Source: Candidatus Parcubacteria bacterium (GTDB taxonomy: Bacteria; Patescibacteriota; Patescibacteriia; Patescibacteriales; UBA12075). From it: a DNA stretch of 64,000 bases. The notes under the pieces are model-generated. The model was not told where the DNA came from. It did no database searches and was given only the letters and a program-made list of their open reading frames with translations. The stretch's first letter is position 1; every line of letters begins with the position of its first letter. The stretch lies in NCBI GenBank assembly GCA_002869165.1, contig PKTK01000001.1, forward strand, positions 446,005 through 510,004, in the 5' to 3' direction. The position numbers and the translations under genes are program-made. Positions 11,009 to 62,086 of the stretch are shown one piece after another.

Positions 11009-12406
11009 ATGAGTAATATGTCTAACCAAATATTAGAAAAATTACCACCCCAGAACCTAGAAGCTGAACAGCATTTTCTAGGCTCTATTTTGCTTGACAA
11101 GGATGCTATCATCAAAGTCGGTGACATGATCAGACCTGATGATTTTTATGACTCAAAACACAGGTTGCTTTATGAAATAATGATTGAATTATATTCAAAA
11201 CATGAACCAATTGATGTTGTTAGTATTAGTAATCTCTTAAAAGAAAAAAACAAGCTTGAACAAGTCGGTGGTAGAACTTATCTTGCCAAACTATCAAATG
11301 TTGCTATTACTCCTACTAGCATAGTTAACTATGCTCATATTATCCAAAAAAAGGCTACTCTGAGACGTCTACTAAAAGCTGCTTCAGAAATAACAGAACT
11401 AGGGCAAAAAGAAGATGAGGAAGTTGATGCACTACTAGACAACGCTTAAAGAAAACTTTTTTCCGTTTCTCATAATTACTTAAAAGAATCCTTTACCCCA
11501 GTTGACACACTTCTAAATGATGCCTTTGAAAGAATTGATGAATTACATAAAATGAGCGGAAAACTCAGGGGTATCCCAACTGGATTCGGTGATTTGGACA
11601 ATCTTCTAACAGGATTACAGAAATCTGACTTGATCATCCTGGCTGCTAGACCATCTGTAGGTAAAACATCGTTTGCCCTAGATATAGCCAGACAAGCAGC
11701 CGTAACACACAAAGCAGCTGTAGGAATATTTTCACTTGAAATGAGTAAGGAACAGCTAGTTGATCGTATGCTTTGCGCTCAATCAAATGTTAGTCTATGG
11801 AAAATGAGATCTGGTAAGCTATCTGACTCTGACGCCAATAATGACTTTGCCAAAATTGCTGAAGGTATGGGACATCTTTCTGAGGCACCTATATACATCG
11901 ACGACTCCCCTAACTGCTCAGTAATGGAGATTCGAACTAAAGCTAGGAGATTAAAGGCTGAAAAAAATCTTGATTTGCTAATAATTGACTACCTCCAACT
12001 CATGGAAGGTCGTGGTAAACATTCTGACAATCGTGTTCAAGAAGTAGCTGAAATTTCTAGTGGTCTCAAGGGTATTGCTCGTGAATTAAATATCCCAGTT
12101 ATTGCCCTCTCACAGCTTTCTCGTGCAGTTGAACAAACCAAACCAGCTATCCCAAAGCTTGCTCATCTTAGAGACTCTGGTTCTATTGAACAAGATGCTG
12201 ATGTAGTTATGTTTATTTATAGAAAATCCGCTGACAGGAACTACAACAAAGAAGAATTATCAGCCGAAGAAAAGAACGCTGGTGAAATCCATGTTGCCAA
12301 ACACAGAAATGGTCCAACCGGAAAAGTAAATCTATTCTTTGATGAAGTAACCGTTAGTTATAAAAACATGGCTAGAGTTGATTACCAAGAGCCACCTCAA
12401 CAATAA
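11009..12406 (+). CDS. dnaB: replicative DNA helicase DnaB, single in-frame TAA at 11447-11449
   Basis: ORFs 11009..11449 and 11552..12406 are in one frame; N-terminal domain (PPQNLEAEQHFLGSILLD), linker, Walker A ARPSVGKTSF, IDYLQLM, SQLSR; total 465 codons, as expected for DnaB. Confidence 0.9.
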
Positions 12407-24847: not shown

Positions 24848-25114
24848 CTAGTCTGTCATAATATTCACCTTAGCAACTATTCCATAAAGATCATTAAGCT
24901 CCTTAGTTAGAGCTTTTATTTCTTTGATTCTCCCCTCGCAAGCAACTGTAATCATACCAGTACAATAAGCAACACAAGATCGCTGAACATTGACTCCTAG
25001 TCTTGCCATGATAATTTTGCCATGTTTAGACAAAATATCATTAACATCACCTGAATGAGTTTGGCGATCTTTAATAAGTATTGAAATTGTAGCTAAATGT
25101 ATTCTATCACCCAT
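24848..25114 (-). CDS. TM1266-family putative iron-only hydrogenase system regulator
   Basis: 88-aa ACT-like protein, ISILIKDRQTHSGDVNDILSKHG...ARLGV pattern, located beside hydA. Confidence 0.6.
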   Translation of the reverse strand: MGDRIHLATISILIKDRQTHSGDVNDILSKHGKIIMARLGVNVQRSCVAYCTGMITVACEGRIKEIKALTKELNDLYGIVAKVNIMTD

Positions 25115-25650: not shown

Positions 25651-27381
25651 CTAATATCCTTTTTTCTTTTTATAAGTTGTATGCAAGACACTATGTTCGT
25701 AGTGATGCCCCTTGGCCCTTAGCCAGTCTAATACTTTCTTCACTGCCATATTGTCGTGGGCTTTCCTAATCTTCCTGTCTTTATCGTGCTTGTATAATGC
25801 TTCTATTCTCTTTTTTCTTATCTCCCAGCTAGTGGGAATTGGTTGTCCACCTCCTCCAATACATCCACCCGGACAACTCATTACTTCAATATAATGATAA
25901 TCATCCAGTTTTTCTAAAACTTTTTTAATATTTCCAATACCGTTTACCACTGCAACATTATATTTATTGCCAGCTATTTATACTTCAGCTTCCTTTAAGC
26001 CATCTATGCCTCTTACGTCTTCAAATTCAAGCCTAGAGTCACAAAGTGAATCATCACTTCCCTGACAAGCCAAATATTGAGCAGTTCGCAAAGCTGATTC
26101 CATTACTCCTCCGCTAGCCCCATAAATTGCAGCTGCGCCACTATATTCGCCAAGAGGATTATCAGCTTGACTTGGATTAATCTTAGCTAGGTTAATCTCA
26201 TTTTTTTTAAGTAAAAAAGCTAGTTCCCTATTGGTCAAAACATAATCAACTGGCAAACTACCTTTAACCTTCATCTCTCCTCTACTCGCCTCATATTTTT
26301 TAGCTGTACAGGGCATCACTGACACTATCTCAATATCTTTGGGTTTTATGCCCATATTTTGCGCCCAATAAGTCTTGATAATACCCCCCATATGCATATT
26401 TGGAGAACGTGAAGTGGTAATATTCGGAATTAAATCGGGACGATATATTTCTACGTAATTCACCCAGGCAGGACAGCAAGAAGTCATCATAGGTAAGGGC
26501 TTTTTTTCGACAATACGTTCGATTAACTCGCCTGCTTCAACCATGGTGGTAACATCTGCTGCAAAATTAACATCAAATACATAGTCGAAACCGAGCTGTC
26601 TAAGAGATGAAACTATTCTATCTGTTGTTTCTTCACCAGGTTCCAAACCGAATTCTTCACCAATACTTACTCTGATCGAAGGGGCAAAAATGGCAACTTT
26701 TGTTTTTTTCTTTTTACTGATAAGTTTTTCAACATCAGCACAATTAAACTGCTCCTGTGCTGCGCTAACTGGACAATGAACAGCACACTGACCACACAAT
26801 ATACACTGAACTTTTGAATCCTTAACTGGTCTAACTTCTTGATTTTCTCCCTTGCCAGCTATTTCTAGATAGTTTATCCCTTGCATCGCACAAGCATCAA
26901 TGCAATTCCGACAATCAATACACTGTGTAGCATCAAGCTCAACAGCATTTGCAAATTTATATACCTTTCTGTCTCCTTTTCTATCTTCAAATCTATTTAT
27001 ATTTAAATTATATTCCTTAGCGTATTTAAGTAACGGGCAGTTAAAGCGCCATAAACAATCAGGGCACTTCTCAACATGGTCAGCGTAAATTAGTTCTAAA
27101 TTGGTTTTACGAGATTTTTGCACTCTATCGGTGTTTGTTTCGATTTCCATACCTTCCTCAACTTTTGTAGAACATGATGTTTGTAAATTTTTTCTATTTT
27201 TAACTTCTACCACACAAACCCGACAGTTTGCATGTGGTGGAAAATCATCATGCTGACAAAGAGTAGGGATGTCTATTCCTTTTTCTCTAGCAACCTGAAG
27301 AATAGTCATTCCTTCATCACAAGAGACTTGTTGGCCATTCAATTTAATTTTTATTTTCTTCCTTGGCATCTTTGCTGTCAT
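25651..27381 (-). CDS. hydA: [FeFe]-hydrogenase HydA (2Fe-2S + 4Fe-4S + H-cluster domains), single in-frame TAA at 25978-25980
   Basis: ORFs 25978..27381 and 25651..25950 are in one frame; TSCCPAW, MPCTAKKYE upstream and CPGGCIGGGGQP downstream of the TAA; total ~576 codons, as for clostridial HydA; real start may be MPRKK (27369). Confidence 0.9.
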
Positions 27382-27494
27382 TCTGGGGCTCCGGTGAAAC
27401 GGAGCGGAACCGGAGAACCCGGAGTCCAGAATCGTTAATTTATGGTGGATCCCGGGTCCTCTTCCACTTACGCTCCAGAGCCCCAGGATGACAA
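27376..27494. repeat. GTCAT-hairpin element
   Basis: tgtcattctggggctccggtgaaacggagcgg...ccagaatcg / gatcccgggtcc...cgctccagagccccaggatgacaa; its terminal ATGACA supplies the first ATG of the hydA track ORF. Confidence 0.8.
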
Positions 27495-31722: not shown

Positions 31723-32523
31723 TTAAAGTGAGAATCTTACAAACTTTTCAATTTTAGCATCTCCGAGAACATCTTCAATTTTTTTCTTATCATCTTTGAT
31801 AAATTCTTGCTTTAGAAGACATACTTCAGAATAATATTTTTCAATTTTTCCTTTCAAAATATTTTCAATAATATTTTCTGGCTTACCTTCTTTTAGAAGT
31901 TGCTCTTTATATATTTCTTTTTCCTTGTCTGTTTCATCAGCTGGAACTTCACTAGGATCAATATATTTAGGACTTGAGGCAGCAATATGCATGGCAATGT
32001 CTTTAGCTAGTTCATTATCGATCTTTTTGTCAAATGATACTAAAACACCAATTTTACCACCCATATGAGAATAAGCAGCTACTGAACCATTTTCTGATTT
32101 TAGCATTTCTATCCCTTTAACGCCCATTTTTTCGCCAATTGTTCCACTTAGATTATCTAGGGTTTCTTGAGCTGTTCCTTCTGACATGGGTTCTGCCATT
32201 AACTCTTCAAGTGAAGCTGGTTTTTTACTTTTTAGAATTTAAAATAACTCTTTGGCATAAGCTTGAAATTTATCGTTTTTTACAACAAAATCAGTTTCAG
32301 CGTTTATTTCAAAAGCATAACCTTCGGTATTATCTTCATTTGTTTCAACTAACACAATACCTTCATTGGTTTCTCTTTCACCTCTTTTAGCTGCTTTTGC
32401 AATTCCTTTTTTACGTAGGATCTCTACTGCCTTTTCAATATCTCCGCCAGTCTCATCAAGAGCTTTTTTACATTCAACCATGCCTGCTCCTGTTTTTTCA
32501 CGAAGTAATTTAATTTTTTCCAT
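31723..32523 (-). CDS. tsf: elongation factor Ts, single in-frame TAA at 32239-32241
   Basis: ORFs 32239..32523 and 31723..32199 are in one frame; UBA-like N-terminus [24 protein letters not shown], then ...KPASLEEL...IGEK... and C-terminal module; downstream of rpsB. Confidence 0.9.
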
Positions 32524-32668: not shown

Positions 32669-33358
32669 TTAGGCTTTCTTTTTTACTCCACTCAATGTAT
32701 CTTTGATAGCATTCAAAACCAATTTAATAGTTTTAGTTGCATAATCATTTGATGGAATTGGATATTTAATTCCAGTTGGATTGGTGTTGGTATCACAAAT
32801 CGCCACTACTGGAATATTCTTCTTTTTTGCTTCCAAGATTGCGGTTTTTTCAATTTTGATGTCCCAAATAAACAAAGCATCAGGAAGTTTGTTCATATTA
32901 GTCAAACCACCTACCTTAAGCTCTAATTTTTCGATCTCTCTAGAAATTTCCAGTTGCTCTTTTTTGGTATATCTACTTAATTTACCAGTTGACTTATCAT
33001 CAAGAAGGTCTTTGTACTTTTTAATAAGTTTTTTGATTACCAAAAAATTTGTCAAAGTTCCACCCATCCATTTCTCACAAATATAAGGTTGGTTAAGATC
33101 TGTAGCTGTTTTTTTAATAAGTTCTTTGACTTGCATTTTTGTACCTACAAAAAGAATGGTTTTTCCTTCTTCTGTAAGCTTGGTCATAAAGGCAAGCGCA
33201 TCTTCAAATTTTTGCTTAGATTGAACTAAGTCAATAATGTGAACACCGTTTCTTTTGCCAAAAATAAAAGGCGCCATTTTGGGATGCCACTTACTAGTTC
33301 GGTGGCCAAAATGCATGCCTGACTTAAGCATTTGTTCAATGCTAGGAATTTTACTCAT
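32669..33358 (-). CDS. rpsB: 30S ribosomal protein S2
   Basis: MLKSGMHFGHRTSKWHPKM, ILFVGTK, classic S2 blocks. Confidence 0.95.
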   Translation of the reverse strand: MSKIPSIEQMLKSGMHFGHRTSKWHPKMAPFIFGKRNGVHIIDLVQSKQKFEDALAFMTKLTEEGKTILFVGTKMQVKELIKKTATDLNQPYICEKWMGGTLTNFLVIKKLIKKYKDLLDDKSTGKLSRYTKKEQLEISREIEKLELKVGGLTNMNKLPDALFIWDIKIEKTAILEAKKKNIPVVAICDTNTNPTGIKYPIPSNDYATKTIKLVLNAIKDTLSGVKKKA

Positions 33359-34246: not shown

Positions 34247-34663
34247 TCAGTCCAATTTACAACAAAGCAATGTTGCCTGAATGCCACAATCAGCATCATC
34301 CAGTCTAAAAAAAACAGTTCTTTCGTCTTGTATCTCATCACCAAAATAATGTTTCATTTCACAATTAGCACTCTCAGGAACCCTTCTCATAGAATGACTA
34401 ACAACAACTTCATCAGCAGCACAAGAAAGAGTCAAAGTTTCTGCATATTCTAAGCCTTCAACAATATGACAATCACTAGAGATTCCTCCAAAATCATCAT
34501 CTAGATTATTCCACATTTCTTCTGTCAATAAGTCCCCCTCTGCTTTTTCGTAACTATTTAGATATGCCAAAACATAAGACCCAAAAGGCAAAAGAACGGC
34601 AACGGAAACAATCAAAACAAATATGATTACAAATGATGTAGTTAGAAATTTTAAATTTTTCAT
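34247..34663 (-). CDS. Cys-rich small membrane-anchored/secreted protein, paralog 2
   Basis: Same architecture: N-terminal hydrophobic helix, six conserved Cys, C-terminal CGIQATLLCC. Confidence 0.7.
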   Translation of the reverse strand: MKNLKFLTTSFVIIFVLIVSVAVLLPFGSYVLAYLNSYEKAEGDLLTEEMWNNLDDDFGGISSDCHIVEGLEYAETLTLSCAADEVVVSHSMRRVPESANCEMKHYFGDEIQDERTVFFRLDDADCGIQATLLCCKLD

Positions 34664-34675
34664 ATTTTTTATATT

Positions 34676-35089
34676 TTAAATATCACAACAAATTAACTTT
34701 GCACGAATTCCACAATTTACATCCTCTATGCTAAACCAAACTGTTCTTTCATCTCGTACACTATCTCCAACATATGCTCTTATATCACAGCCAGAATCAT
34801 TTCTCCTTATCATTGAGTGGTTAATAACCGTCTCATCTGCATCACAAGAAAGAGTCATTTCTTGCGCATATGTTTCACCTGAAACCACACGACAATCGCC
34901 ACTAATTTTACCAAAGTCATCATCAAGGTTATTCCACATCTCTACAGATAATAAATCTCCAGACGACTTTTCGTAGCTATTTAAATAAGCCATAACATAA
35001 GATCCAAAAGGCGACAAAACAGCAACGGAAACGACAAAAACAAACACAGTAACAAACGAAATAGCTAATGTTGATTTATAGTTTTTCAT
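34676..35089 (-). CDS. Cys-rich small membrane-anchored/secreted protein, paralog 1
   Basis: Same architecture; C-terminal CGIRAKLICCDI. Confidence 0.7.
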   Translation of the reverse strand: MKNYKSTLAISFVTVFVFVVSVAVLSPFGSYVMAYLNSYEKSSGDLLSVEMWNNLDDDFGKISGDCRVVSGETYAQEMTLSCDADETVINHSMIRRNDSGCDIRAYVGDSVRDERTVWFSIEDVNCGIRAKLICCDI

Positions 35090-46439: not shown

Positions 46440-48539
46440 ATGATATTTTTTGATAAAAAGCACAAAAGAAAAATCTTGTTTAGAATTATTATAATTTTCT
46501 TAATAGTTATGTTTTTTGCACTAAGTGGTAACTTGGCCATTAGTTTAGCTACCACTAAATATGGGGAAATCTACATTGATTATAGTGCTTATTACACTGA
46601 TGACAAAGAAAAAAAACTGGCCCTTACATTTGATGATGGTCCGCATAAAAGAAACACGCTAAAAATCCTCAAAGTCCTAAACGATAACGATATTAAAGCC
46701 ACTTTTTTCTTTCAAGGGCAAAATATTATTAGCAACCATGATGTAGTCAAACAAGTCTATGAAGCTGGCATGGAAATCGGTAATCACAGTTTTACTCATT
46801 CGAAAAATGTTCACAGTTCTCCAACTAGGTTGAAATACGAACTAAACTTAACCAGCGAATTATTGGAAGATATCACAGGAGAGCCAGCTCTTCTGTACCG
46901 ACCACCGTTTCTACTTGATGTTGGTGGAGATCCAATCTACTTTCCCCAAGACAATATTCCTATACTAGACCAAATTCAAGCTGAGGGTTATATTGTAATT
47001 GGCGCTGATATAGACCCTAAAGACTGGGATGTAAAAAGCCCTCAAGAGGTAGTAGATAATATTGATAAGGTAATTGATAATGGCAATATAATACTTCTTC
47101 ATGATGGAGGAAAAGAAGTTAGACACACGGTTTATGCGCTAGACACTATTATAAAAAAATACAAAGATCAAGGCTACACCTTCACAACAGTATCAGATAT
47201 TATTGGTTTAAAAGAAGATAAGACAACTAAAACGACTAACAATTCCCTATTATCTACCATCCAAGCTAAACTAGACTCTATTTATCTTTATCTTCTAACT
47301 ATTTTTAGTTTCCTGTTTATTGATATTATTATAAAAGCCCTGGTGATACTGGCTCTTCTTAGACTTGTTTTTGTTTTAATATTATTTAATATTGATAATC
47401 TCAAAAAATTCAAAAGAGAGAAAAAACCTGACAAATCCCCTCCAAGTGTAGCCGTAGTAATTCCTGCCTATAACGAAGAAGCTAGCATTGCTTCAACTAT
47501 CAAAAGTGTACTAAACAATACCTATAAGGTAGACGAAATAATAGTAATGAACGATGGATCCACTGACAGCACAAAAAAAATAGTAAAAGATTTAGCATTG
47601 AAATACTCGCAAATAAAGTTATTTAATCTTAAAAACGGGGGTAAAGCCAGAGCCCTGAATCACGCCTTCCTAATCTCTCAAAAAGATATTCTGATCTGCA
47701 TGGATGGTGATTCAATCTTTGAAAAGAATGCTATCGGCCATTTGATAAAGAATTTTGATGACCCACTAGTAGCTGCTGTAGCCGGCAAGGTATCAGCTAT
47801 TGTAAAGAAGAATTACATTGGGGGCTTTCAGCAAATCGAATATATTATAGGTCAAAACATTGAAAAAGCCTCTTTTAGTACTGTAAATGCTGTTGGGGTG
47901 GTGCCGGGCCCAATCGGTGCTTGGAAAAGAAGGGTCGTAAATGCGCTTGGTGGATACTCAAAAGACACACTGGTAGAAGACCAGGACTTAACTCTGGCCA
48001 TACTTAGTCAGGGGTTTGAAATTCGTTATGAACCGCGCGCCCTATGCTATACCGAAGCCCCTACCAATATCAAAGATTTTTCCAAACAAAGATTTAGATG
48101 GATATATGGTACTATGCAATGCTTCTGGAAATACAAAAAATTTCTCTTTAATCCAAAGAGAAAAAATCTGGGTATGATGATCATGCCAAATATACTTTTA
48201 TATAACACTTTTGTCCCGTTTTTCTCGCCAATGATTGATCTGTTTGCTATTCTTGCTATCTTTACCGGCCAATTCCATGGTGCTTTACTTGCTTATAATT
48301 TCTTTACTTTATTTGATATTTTGTATGCGGGGTCAGCTTTTCTCATTGGCAATGAAAAGAAAAATTGGCACTTGCTTCTACTCATACCTGCCCAAAGAAT
48401 TTTCTACAGACAAATCCTTTATTATATTGTCATCAAATCTCTTATCAAAGCTATAGAAGGGACCAGTGCTTTTTGGAACAAAGTTGAAAGAAACGGTAAT
48501 CTGGAAAAATTTTACTCTAATAATTTAAAACACGCCTAA
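46440..48539 (+). CDS. fusion protein: NodB-type polysaccharide deacetylase + processive family-2 glycosyltransferase (PgaB/PgaC-like)
   Basis: TFDDGP, NHSFTH, LLHDG (deacetylase); VVIPAYNEE, DGSTD, MDGDS, QRFRW plus C-terminal TMs (GT2 synthase). Confidence 0.8.
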   Translation: MIFFDKKHKRKILFRIIIIFLIVMFFALSGNLAISLATTKYGEIYIDYSAYYTDDKEKKLALTFDDGPHKRNTLKILKVLNDNDIKATFFFQGQNIISNHDVVKQVYEAGMEIGNHSFTHSKNVHSSPTRLKYELNLTSELLEDITGEPALLYRPPFLLDVGGDPIYFPQDNIPILDQIQAEGYIVIGADIDPKDWDVKSPQEVVDNIDKVIDNGNIILLHDGGKEVRHTVYALDTIIKKYKDQGYTFTTVSDIIGLKEDKTTKTTNNSLLSTIQAKLDSIYLYLLTIFSFLFIDIIIKALVILALLRLVFVLILFNIDNLKKFKREKKPDKSPPSVAVVIPAYNEEASIASTIKSVLNNTYKVDEIIVMNDGSTDSTKKIVKDLALKYSQIKLFNLKNGGKARALNHAFLISQKDILICMDGDSIFEKNAIGHLIKNFDDPLVAAVAGKVSAIVKKNYIGGFQQIEYIIGQNIEKASFSTVNAVGVVPGPIGAWKRRVVNALGGYSKDTLVEDQDLTLAILSQGFEIRYEPRALCYTEAPTNIKDFSKQRFRWIYGTMQCFWKYKKFLFNPKRKNLGMMIMPNILLYNTFVPFFSPMIDLFAILAIFTGQFHGALLAYNFFTLFDILYAGSAFLIGNEKKNWHLLLLIPAQRIFYRQILYYIVIKSLIKAIEGTSAFWNKVERNGNLEKFYSNNLKHA

Positions 48540-56403: not shown

Positions 56404-56566
56404 AGAAGCTACTGGCTATAATTACTTTGATTAAATCACTTTTAAATTTTGAGGAAATTTTTTTGAAATTTTTTTTAGCAATATGGATATATTGGTCAAA
56501 AAAATTTAATAAAAATTTACCGAAATTTAAAATGATTTTGCAATGAAATTATAGCCAGTAGCTTCT
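56404..56566 (-). other. insertion 2 in rnpB: 20-bp perfect stem with a 123-nt AT-rich loop
   Basis: agaagctactggctataatt (56404-56423) pairs with aattatagccagtagcttct (56547-56566); sits immediately 5' of the conserved ACAGAAUCCGG. Confidence 0.8.
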
Positions 56567-56665
56567 ATGTATAGTTATTTATCTAGGCCTACTGTTACCA
56601 GTAAGCTCATGCGAACTACTTATAACCAGAGCGAAGTTCTGCAAACTCCAAACTAAATACTGTTT

Positions 56666-56762
56666 TGTCATCTCGTAGCGAAGCGGAGAGATCTCTTAAA
56701 TGCAAATAGCTTCACGTCTAAGGGATTTCTCCATTCGCTCTCGCTCCTTGCGAAATGACAAG
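56666..56762. repeat. GTCAT-hairpin element inserted inside rnpB
   Basis: tgtcATCTCgtagcgaagcggaGAGATctc ... gggatttctccattcgctctcgctccttgcgaaatgacaag, at the tip of the helix formed by ccagaacgaagttct/agaacttcgctctgg and aaatact/agtattt. Confidence 0.85.
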
Positions 56763-57070
56763 AGTATTTTTTAGAATTTCTAGAACTTCGTTCTGGCTTT
56801 GTTCTTGCTCCAGGTAGGGTTTACCACGAACATGCTGTCACCAGCAGTCGAAATTAGTAGCCATTTGTCTCGAGAACAAATAACACCTAAAAACTTTTCA
56901 CCTTTTATCTCGACATATGTCGAAACTAGTATAGTCTCTGCGGCACTTTCCCTAGGGTTTCCCCCGGTGGATGTTATCCACTACCCATAACCAGAGCGAA
57001 GCTCTGGCTGGAGTCCGGACTTTCCTCCCCGTTTTAATTTTGAAACGAGGCAACTATATATCTGCCTTGA

Positions 57071-57405: not shown

Positions 57406-57649
57406 TCGCGCCCTCTTCTAACTGTGATTTTATGGTATTGATTTTCCTTTTGCTCACTACGACGTTTATAATAACACCAATTGCAAGCAGCAGGCAAATT
57501 GAACCGACAACAACTGACTTGTAAAAAGATAACGCTGACAATAACAGCAGTGGAATAATCCACTGAAGACTAATCTCTAATGAAAAATCTTCTACTCTAA
57601 TTTCTGCAAATGCTACATCGTCACTCGCCATAATCTCAATATCTGTCAT
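57395..57649 (-). CDS. small 2-TM membrane protein D
   Basis: Likely start MTDIEIMASDD (57649); two TM helices; tail SKRKINTIKSQLEE; 11-nt overlap with the next gene; TTGACT-17-TATGAT promoter-like pair near 57740-57710. Confidence 0.5.
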   Translation of the reverse strand: MTDIEIMASDDVAFAEIRVEDFSLEISLQWIIPLLLLSALSFYKSVVVGSICLLLAIGVIINVVVSKRKINTIKSQLEEGANES

Positions 57650-57822
57650 CTCTCTTCTCCTTAAATTTGTTAATAAAAAGTACACAATCTTCTAAAAAGA
57701 ATATATAATATCATAGCAAAAAATGCTTAATTAGTCAAGTTCAAATATTATGATTTTATTTAATGTTAGCTAATTATCTAAAAATAAAAAGCGTATTCTT
57801 ATTAAGAAATACGCTTAAATTC

Positions 57823-58254
57823 TTATTTTTCCCTTTCTCCTCTTTCAAACTCGCACTCTTTTTCAAAAATCTCTGCTTCTCTGCCTAAAACCATGCAAAG
57901 AATAATTATAGATGGAATTAACATAAAAACCCCAAACAGCCGCCCCATAACACCATTATCATACATCAGATGTAGCAGTAATCCACAGAATAACACTACA
58001 ATGGGAAAACTTGTTATTAATTTCTGCTTGTAGAGGGTAATTTCTGGACTGACCTCCCCTTGCTCGATTCTATAACTATAGTCAAGCTCAACGAGAATAT
58101 CTAAACATACCACAAATGCAATAAATGATACTATGGAAGCTATCACTACCAGTGGAATATTCTCATAACAAATCCAGGCAGCAACGACTAATACTATTGC
58201 CAGATATATCAGCTTAATTACGGTTCGAATACTTTTTACAGTTTTTTCTTTCAT
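57823..58254 (-). CDS. small 4-TM membrane protein C
   Basis: 143 aa, four hydrophobic helices, acidic C-terminus; hairpin terminator aagcgtatt/aatacgctt follows at ~57789-57815. Confidence 0.5.
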   Translation of the reverse strand: MKEKTVKSIRTVIKLIYLAIVLVVAAWICYENIPLVVIASIVSFIAFVVCLDILVELDYSYRIEQGEVSPEITLYKQKLITSFPIVVLFCGLLLHLMYDNGVMGRLFGVFMLIPSIIILCMVLGREAEIFEKECEFERGEREK

Positions 58255-58296
58255 TATTTCTCCTCTAAAAAATTACTTTTCTTAGAAAAAAATTTA

Positions 58297-58482
58297 TTAT
58301 CCAAGTGCCGTCTTAAAAATATAGCAACCTAACCCCGAAAAAACTAAAGTAAAACTGGAATAAACAATAATTTTATTAACTAGTGTTACCTTTTCTTCTT
58401 TTTCAAAATATGACTCAGGAATTCTAAAGGTTATCCCGATAAATATTCCAAAAAAAATTAAGACACTGCCGATTGTGTTCAT
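58297..58482 (-). CDS. small 2-TM membrane protein B
   Basis: 61 aa; ATGA overlap with the upstream gene. Confidence 0.45.
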   Translation of the reverse strand: MNTIGSVLIFFGIFIGITFRIPESYFEKEEKVTLVNKIIVYSSFTLVFSGLGCYIFKTALG

Positions 58483-58766
58483 TTTTTTATCTTCTCCTTA
58501 AATTTATATTCTATTTCAACAAGTTCTACGTCGTCTTTGAAGGAAAATATTGCAAAAAGTATCATCATAAATACCATCACTACTTGAAATGGTATTTTCA
58601 TATAAGTTAATGGAATGAAAAAATTCGCAAGCACAGCAAGTATTCCAAAGTAAATCGATGTCAGTTGCCCATCAACTACTAATGACTTCATGTTGGCTAA
58701 AATCAATCCTCTAGTAAAATTTGGTCCATAAGAAACTACTGCGGGTTTTTCTCTGAACATTTTCAT
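58479..58766 (-). CDS. small membrane protein A
   Basis: 95 aa, two TM helices, first gene of the cluster. Confidence 0.5.
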   Translation of the reverse strand: MKMFREKPAVVSYGPNFTRGLILANMKSLVVDGQLTSIYFGILAVLANFFIPLTYMKIPFQVVMVFMMILFAIFSFKDDVELVEIEYKFKEKIKK

Positions 58767-60264: not shown

Positions 60265-60480
60265 AAATAACCAAACAATATTTAATGTTTGGTTATTTTT
60301 TATTTCTAATTTGTTTGTTTCTTATATCCTTGTATCTTTCAAATCCCAACGAAGTCAAAAAATATCATAGTTAATCCCAATATTCTCGAGATTCTTCGCT
60401 TCCGCTCAGAATGACACTAAGGAGAAGTATTCTTAATTCTTAATTCTTAATTCTTAATTCTTAATTCTTAATTCTTAATT
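60265..60480. repeat. composite intergenic repeat, copy 3 with (TTCTTAA)7
   Basis: AACCAAACA-n8-TGTTTGGTT + T-run (60269-60300), tail ctaatttgtttgtttc, right arm gagattcttcgcttccgctcagaatgacac (60388-60417), seven TTCTTAA units + TT (60430-60480). Confidence 0.85.
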
Positions 60481-60945: not shown

Positions 60946-62086
60946 CTTTCAAAATATCATTTTGAACTTTTTGCATTAAAGTAGTGTAAAATTCCAAGTT
61001 GTGTAAGCTAGCAAGTCTGGCTCCGAGTGGATCTTTGATCTTTTGCAGATGATGAAGATAACTTTTCGAATGATTTCGCAACAAAGACAAGTTTGAACTT
61101 TCATTTATAGCTGACTCATCACTAAAATATTTTGAATTAGCAATATTTAATGTTTTTTAAAACTTAAGAACTTTCCCTTTGGCACCGACCAACTTTTCTG
61201 AACTAAAATAAAATAACCTGCCATGTCGTCCTTCCCTAGTTGGTATAACACAATCAAAAATATCCCATCCCATTAGAACAGACCTGACAATATCTTCTGG
61301 TGTACCTACCCCCAAAGCAAAACGAAAATTATTCGTAGGGATAGAAATGGCTGTAGCTTGCATCACCTTATCCAAAAAGTTTCCCTCTTCATCAACCGGC
61401 CTAGCTCCATAACCATAACCATCAAAACCTATTTTCTGTAACTCTAAAGAACAAAACTCTCTTTTATCAATATCCTTTGCCCCTTGAATAACAGCTATAA
61501 GTAAAGGGCGATTTTTTTTATTTATTTTTCGTCTTATCAACTCTTCTTCAAAGCTGTGCTTACAATCCTTGGCCCACTCTATGGTTCTATTGATAGCTTG
61601 GTCAAGCTTCTTTTCTGAAGCATCATTGGGATGACAATCATCGAGACAGATTACCATATCAGTTCCCAAATCCATTTGTATCTGAATAGATTTTTTTGGT
61701 GTTAATTCGTGCCACGAACCATCAATCGGTGATTTGAACCTAGCTCGTTCGTTATTAATACTTCCCATTTTCCCTTCACCTCTATGTATCAATGAAAAAA
61801 CCTGAAAGCCGCCTGAATCAGAAATCAAAGGGATATTGGTATTCATGAACTTGTGGACTCCTCCTTGTTTTTTAATTAACTTGGCGCCAGGCTGGAGATA
61901 AAGATGAAAAGTATTTACTACCATTGCGGGTAAGCCTAAATCTTCAATTTCAGACTGTGACAAGCCCTTGAGTACCGCCCGAGTAGCATCAGGCATAAAG
62001 AATGGTGTCTTAAGTATGCCATGGGGAGTTTTAAGCTCTGTCACCCGAGCTTTTGTAATATTTGATTGTTTAATTATGTTTAACAT
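60935..62086 (-). CDS. tgt: tRNA-guanine transglycosylase (Tgt) homologue, single in-frame TAA at 61157-61159
   Basis: Track ORF 61157..62086 (DSGGFQVFSL, LGVGTPEDIV, FDCVIPTREGRHG) continues in frame after the TAA for 73 codons: ...NSKYFSDE...SYLHHLQKIKDPLGARLASLHNLEFY...; total 383 codons, as for Tgt. Confidence 0.85.

Follow-up and report, generated by a model that had tools for sequence, protein, structure and literature searches.

An in-frame TAA in the [FeFe]-hydrogenase gene of a Candidatus Parcubacteria MAG, probably an oxidative-damage-type error of the consensus sequence

The hydA locus

The window, which is the whole stretch of 64,000 nucleotides analyzed here, belongs to a metagenome-assembled genome (MAG) of a Candidatus Parcubacteria bacterium with the locus tags C0583_. 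It carries a gene for an [FeFe]-hydrogenase, hydA, the reading frame of which is interrupted by a stop codon. The following features, all of them on the minus strand, make up the locus.

24848-25114, minus strand: TM1266-like gene ("iron-only hydrogenase system regulator"), downstream of hydA; a neighbour conserved in relatives
25651-27381, minus strand: complete hydA frame, group A, M3-type [FeFe]-hydrogenase, 576 codons plus TAG, according to translation, Pfam, and PDB
25651-25977, minus strand: C-terminal fragment of hydA, 108 codons, with motif L3 and the SSU-like tail
25978-25980, minus strand: in-frame TAA at hydA codon 468, the sole break in the 576-codon frame
25978-27381, minus strand: N-terminal fragment of hydA, 467 amino acids (PLX28046.1, "ferredoxin"), with the F-cluster domains and motifs L1 and L2
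27787-28833, minus strand: NuoF/HydB-like flavoprotein gene, upstream of hydA, in an arrangement that is syntenic in relatives

In the translation of the window, the hydA frame comprises 577 codons, including one internal stop and the terminal TAG (25651-25653). The three H-cluster motifs, L1 (TSCCP), L2 (MPCxxK), and L3 (ExMxCxxGCxxGGGQP), are all found in the joined frame. L1 is present as TSCCPAW at amino acids 300-306 (window 26464-26484) and L2 as MPCTAKKYE at amino acids 356-364 (window 26290-26316), both 5′ of the TAA; L3, CPGGCIGGGGQP, is located 3′ of it, at amino acids 503-514 (window 25840-25875). The intact allele, as encoded on a conspecific contig, contains the Pfam domains Fer2_4, NADH-G_4Fe-4S_3, Fer4 (Fer4_7/9; 4Fe-4S dicluster), Fe_hyd_lg_C (PF02906, 3.3e-88), and Fe_hyd_SSU. 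Among PDB entries it is matched end to end by the electron-bifurcating HydA1 of 8a6t (1.2e-145) and over the full length by CpI of Clostridium pasteurianum (about 1e-132), so that the alignments with CpI and HydA1 (4xdc, 1feh, 8a6t) span the whole protein at E values of 1e-132 to 1e-145. The domain order is likewise that of CpI and HydA1, namely, Fer2_4, a His-ligated 4Fe-4S cluster, two 4Fe-4S clusters, the H-domain, and an SSU-like tail, and it is shared with these systems that L1, L2, and L3 are present and that a NuoF/HydB-like gene lies upstream. Unlike in those systems, the NuoF-like partner is short (348 amino acids). Genes for the maturases HydE, HydF, and HydG were not seen within about 10 kb of hydA. 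Judged from its sequence, hydA is a normal single-polypeptide gene of a group A (M3, CpI-like) [FeFe]-hydrogenase.

A preliminary description of this DNA had claimed that the frame is broken only by the TAA at 25978-25980, that the H-cluster motifs are thereby divided between two open reading frames, that neither half could form an active site on its own, and that the joined length of about 576 codons is of the clostridial type. The minus-strand translation reveals no other break, the motifs are distributed over the two parts as given above, neither fragment possesses all ligands of the H-cluster, and the length as well as the full-length match to CpI agree with the proposed type.

GenBank lists the two parts of the gene as separate proteins. 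PLX28046.1 corresponds to the N-terminal 81% of HydA; the C-terminal part is called as PLX28045.1, a "hypothetical protein" of 99 amino acids, from a GTG at 25950. This GTG, nine codons on, is the first candidate start 3′ of the TAA, where neither an ATG nor a Shine-Dalgarno sequence is found. Since the GenBank proteins show the same fragments, the TAA is part of the publicly deposited sequence rather than a later alteration of the window. A literature search on the run, assembly, and protein accessions returned no paper.

Immediately upstream, a GC-rich leader hairpin of about 118 nt (27377-27494, minus strand) is predicted with a dG of -69.7 kcal/mol and a z-score of -7.7. Its GC content is about 55%, compared with 34% for the whole window, and its 3′ arm covers the ATG of hydA. 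The hairpin has no Rfam match and no second copy in the window, and it is missing in two syntenic relatives, where hydA is directly adjoined by either a small ORF or the NuoF-like gene. The hairpin may serve in regulation or may be a small element inserted at this place.

The locus in conspecific assemblies and relatives

Conspecific contigs were recovered via unaltered neighbour proteins, such as the NuoF-like protein. The contigs from JGI 3300007102, ENA ERZ794999 (NODE_4, 500,921 bp), and Logan SRR5894289 are 99.91-99.93% identical to the window, and each of these assemblies encodes the intact HydA of 576 amino acids together with an intact EF-Ts of 266 amino acids. The sole difference within hydA is base 25980 of the plus strand, which is A in the window versus C in the three assemblies; on the coding strand this is a G>T change, by which codon 468 is GAA (Glu) in the three assemblies and TAA in the window. 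The 108 codons following the TAA are otherwise identical to those of the intact alleles and, therefore, exhibit no decay. According to the preliminary description, the stop occupies the position of a Glu residue, and a sense codon in the reads would count against it. The former holds, as in the structure-sequence alignment the TAA faces the second Glu of KEAEVEINNNKYNVAV in CpI (Asp in HydA1 of 8a6t); as to the latter, a sense codon, GAA, is in effect what the JGI, ENA, and Logan assemblies carry at this site. The difference from CpI and HydA1 at codon 468, that is, TAA instead of GAA, is thus one of the deposited sequence only.

Among the matches listed in the homologue search there are 119 relatives, named Parcubacteria, Falkowbacteria, or Patescibacteria, with 61-70% identity, lengths of 564-606 amino acids, and a coverage of at least 95%. 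In all of these, as in the three conspecific assemblies, HydA is encoded by a single uninterrupted ORF, which is not the case in the window; the only truncated entry among the listed homologues is the window's own fragment of 467 amino acids. When 120 sequences are aligned, no gap occurs in the column of the stop, which is occupied by D (36), N (20), or E (19), and also by S, T, or K. The loci of two relatives are syntenic with the window, with the gene order GAPDH, NuoF-like, hydA, TM1266-like, 177-amino acid membrane protein, and CCA-adding enzyme, and in both of them hydA is unsplit.

These comparisons bear on the idea that the two ORFs encode separate functional subunits, in the manner of the Desulfovibrio enzyme with its large and its small subunit. 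Two-subunit [FeFe]-hydrogenases do occur naturally (1hfe_L and related chains), the Desulfovibrio enzyme 1hfe consisting of a large chain and a second, small one that resembles the C-terminal part. In that enzyme, however, the large subunit covers HydA residues 145-533, and because 1hfe_L aligns well past L3, the TAA does not coincide with the natural boundary between the subunits, which follows L3 and is some 50-65 residues further downstream than the TAA of the window. The TAA instead falls 35 codons before L3 and cuts PF02906 around position 190-200 of the 245 in the model, whereby L3 is parted from L1 and L2. A second chain would also have to be started without an ATG or a Shine-Dalgarno sequence, and a split gene is found neither in the 119 listed relatives nor in the two syntenic loci. 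Given where the break lies, a Desulfovibrio-like split is rejected, and there is hardly any probability left for two functional subunits.

Private substitutions across the window

For a comparison beyond hydA, the window was tiled with the ENA contig and in part with the JGI and Logan contigs. It contains 41 private substitutions, namely, C>A at 21 sites, G>T at 18, and C>T and A>C at one each, so that 39 of the 41 are G:C to T:A transversions, at a density of about 0.6 per kb. These 39 changes are absent from ENA and Logan and, for the most part, from JGI. Four of them create stop codons.

11447-11449, plus strand: dnaB, E147 to stop, GAA>TAA (G>T); the DnaB of the ENA assembly is intact (462 amino acids)
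25978-25980, minus strand: hydA, E468 to stop, GAA>TAA; HydA is intact (576 amino acids) in three assemblies
32239-32241, minus strand: tsf (EF-Ts), E95 to stop, GAA>TAA; EF-Ts is intact (266 amino acids) in three assemblies
61157-61159, minus strand: tgt, Y310 to stop, TAC>TAA (C>A on the coding strand); Tgt is intact (383 amino acids) in JGI and ENA

The in-frame TAA of dnaB, which had been noticed earlier as a case like that of hydA, is thereby confirmed, with tsf and tgt as further examples. In GenBank, the fragments of EF-Ts (PLX28051.1, 158 amino acids, "translation elongation factor Ts") and Tgt (PLX28078.1, 309 amino acids, "tRNA guanosine(34) transglycosylase Tgt") are annotated like normal proteins.

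That a TAA is found in each of the four interrupted genes, at a Glu position in three of them, would be compatible with TAA being decoded as sense or being read through, by ochre suppression or by reassignment, with full-length HydA, DnaB, EF-Ts, and Tgt being made. Against this stands the role of TAA as the main terminator in the window, where it ends 57 of the 92 ORFs of at least 90 codons. Further, 64% of the possible nonsense outcomes of G:C to T:A changes are TAA, which makes four TAA in four cases unremarkable (p=0.17 by chance). The amino acid replaced is not the same in all cases, being Glu in dnaB, hydA, and tsf but Tyr in tgt, and the conspecific assemblies contain GAA or TAC at all four sites. 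An RF1-type release factor gene (PET, GGQ) adjoins prmC, and the only tRNAs in the window are Thr(UGU) and Lys(UUU), with no suppressor tRNA among them. The way in which stop codons are used, the presence of an RF1 gene, and the occurrence of both Glu and Tyr sites speak against global reassignment of TAA, which is rejected; sense decoding or readthrough in general is very unlikely.

Expected effects of the 39 changes were derived by applying the same G>T/C>A mutation to every G/C site of the window.

Missense: observed 25, expected 25.7
Synonymous: observed 5, expected 3.2
Intergenic: observed 5, expected 6.1
Nonsense: observed 4, expected 4.03

The effect classes do not deviate from those of random mutation (chi-square p=0.73), and the changes are uniformly positioned over the G/C sites (KS p=0.43). 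On the coding strand, G and C are hit in a ratio of 20:14, as predicted from the base composition, so that no coding-strand bias is evident. The effects match unselected random mutation, and the 39 changes thus bear one chemical signature, that of guanine oxidation, without any sign of purifying selection. The stop of hydA, being one of these 39 MAG-private changes, would accordingly be an error-like or unselected lesion. The changed C is preceded by a 5′ pyrimidine in 33 of the 39 cases, versus about 21 expected, and the context TCA occurs 11 times versus 4.5; an artefact and a mutator cannot be told apart by the trinucleotide context.

With regard to the proteins affected, nine altered products were retrieved by exact look-up, five of full length and four truncated by the stops, and they occur in the NCBI MAG alone, with the exception of the S2 protein with the change at 32743, which is present also in JGI. 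The unaltered versions from the same protein clusters are found in JGI, Logan, or ENA. In contig look-ups, no contigs encoding the truncated HydA or three proteins with private missense changes were found, and an exact scan for the hydA junction in which the variable base was left as N gave no match in genome and metagenome contig collections.

Several other elements were observed in the window. The only indel in the 64 kb concerns an intergenic (GAATTAA)n repeat at about 60428-60460, of which ENA has one copy more. A bacterial class A RNase P RNA is encoded at 56537-57069 (minus strand); its length of 533 nt as against a model of 367 positions implies large insertions, and one window-private G>T, at 56734, lies within this gene. 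Two paralogs arranged in tandem at 34247-35089 (minus strand) encode Cys-rich proteins of about 137 amino acids each with N-terminal hydrophobic segments. They are in frame with each other, separated by a genuine TAA, and have no Pfam family on record.

Origin of the stop codon

The hydA stop does exist in the sequence as deposited, but most likely the organism itself does not have it, and the stop together with the other G:C to T:A changes would most likely represent oxidative-damage (8-oxoG-type) errors that were fixed in the MAG consensus. Pairing of 8-oxoguanine with A leads to G:C to T:A transversions, and oxidation of guanine would leave this signature through such mispairing. In the proposed course of events, template or library DNA would have been damaged and the changes would have been fixed in the assembly consensus; in hydA, the C>A at 25980 of the plus strand, corresponding to G>T in the coding strand, would have converted the GAA of Glu468 into TAA in the MAG. 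The 39 changes would then not exist in the living population, full-length HydA would be made by the cell, and the two GenBank "proteins" would be annotation artefacts.

Consensus errors are favoured because the effect spectrum is neutral, the combination of stops would be lethal, and the changes are without independent support. An artefact of this type is documented: when 8-oxoG forms in the course of sample preparation, C>A/G>T changes appear in the sequencing data (Costello et al. 2013, PMC3616734). The changes of the window resemble it in that G:C to T:A is near-exclusive (39 of 41), and in the lack of a coding-strand bias, of a selection signature, and of any counterpart in independent assemblies. 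They differ from it in that they are known from an assembly consensus, while the published artefact, which originates upon shearing and shows at low allele fractions (PMC3616734), was described from reads, where it is marked by their orientation (G>T on read 1, C>A on read 2). This is a point against an artefact, since the changes are found in the consensus of a long MAG contig; for the consensus of a 585-kb contig to be affected, low coverage is needed, or damage before amplification with few templates.

The main rival to consensus errors is that the substitutions are real and that the MAG stems from a hypermutator sublineage of very recent origin, defective, for example, in 8-oxoG repair of the MutY/MutM type. 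Unselected G:C to T:A changes would have accumulated in such a sublineage, and hydA would be a newly made pseudogene. Mutators deficient in MutY/MutM are characterized by a G:C to T:A transversion spectrum, which is exactly the one dominating the window, and the length of the MAG contig (584,723 bp) argues against very low coverage. A second assembly, that of JGI, displays the same bias, as 10 of the 11 changes that set it apart from ENA are G:C to T:A, and two of them (8277 and 32743) are common to the window. Shared reads or real polymorphism would, therefore, have to be assumed. However, the JGI-private and window-private sets of changes are mostly disjoint, which would demand at least three haplotypes, and, apart from S2 in JGI, none of the nine window-private proteins and fragments occurs in another assembly. 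A surviving MutY/MutM mutator lineage is, moreover, not expected to combine lethal nonsense changes with an effect spectrum free of any selection. DnaB and EF-Ts are essential in bacteria, and the four nonsense changes within 64 kb, which include those in dnaB and tsf, would be jointly lethal. A hypermutator is, on balance, unlikely. A variant of it, in which a real failure of 8-oxoG repair is accompanied by an ochre suppressor rescuing the nonsense codons of dnaB, tsf, tgt, and hydA, is highly improbable, even if G>T could itself give rise to such a suppressor, as in tRNA-Tyr GUA>UUA.

Isolated changes were seen in related data sets as well. The JGI contig Ga0102541_1058941 has a stop of its own (TCA>TAA) at window position 47194, which cuts a gene for a 699-amino acid glycosyltransferase/deacetylase into parts of 398 and 251 amino acids. 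The ENA contig NODE_29711 of ERZ794998 (coverage 2.2), which originates from the same organism in a sibling sample, corresponds to window 57460-58509 and shows three differences in 1050 bp, including a missense change of the C>A type. Errors readily enter assemblies of this organism when coverage is low.

Of the preliminary reading, it is the single HydA gene cut by a TAA that stands, with none of the 119 listed relatives being split and no gap in the alignment across the site; recoding, programmed readthrough, or a two-subunit enzyme are not what it amounts to. The biological weight of the hydA stop is little, as the organism almost certainly possesses an intact HydA of the ordinary kind. A public MAG with about 0.6 G:C to T:A consensus changes per kb is, however, a warning concerning data quality, as 64 kb of it would contain four falsely split genes that are given as separate proteins by GenBank. 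Scans of CPR genomes for recoding, pseudogenes, or metabolic capacity would be misled by such changes, and a comparison of the transversion spectrum with the neutral expectation would serve as a quick filter for similar cases.
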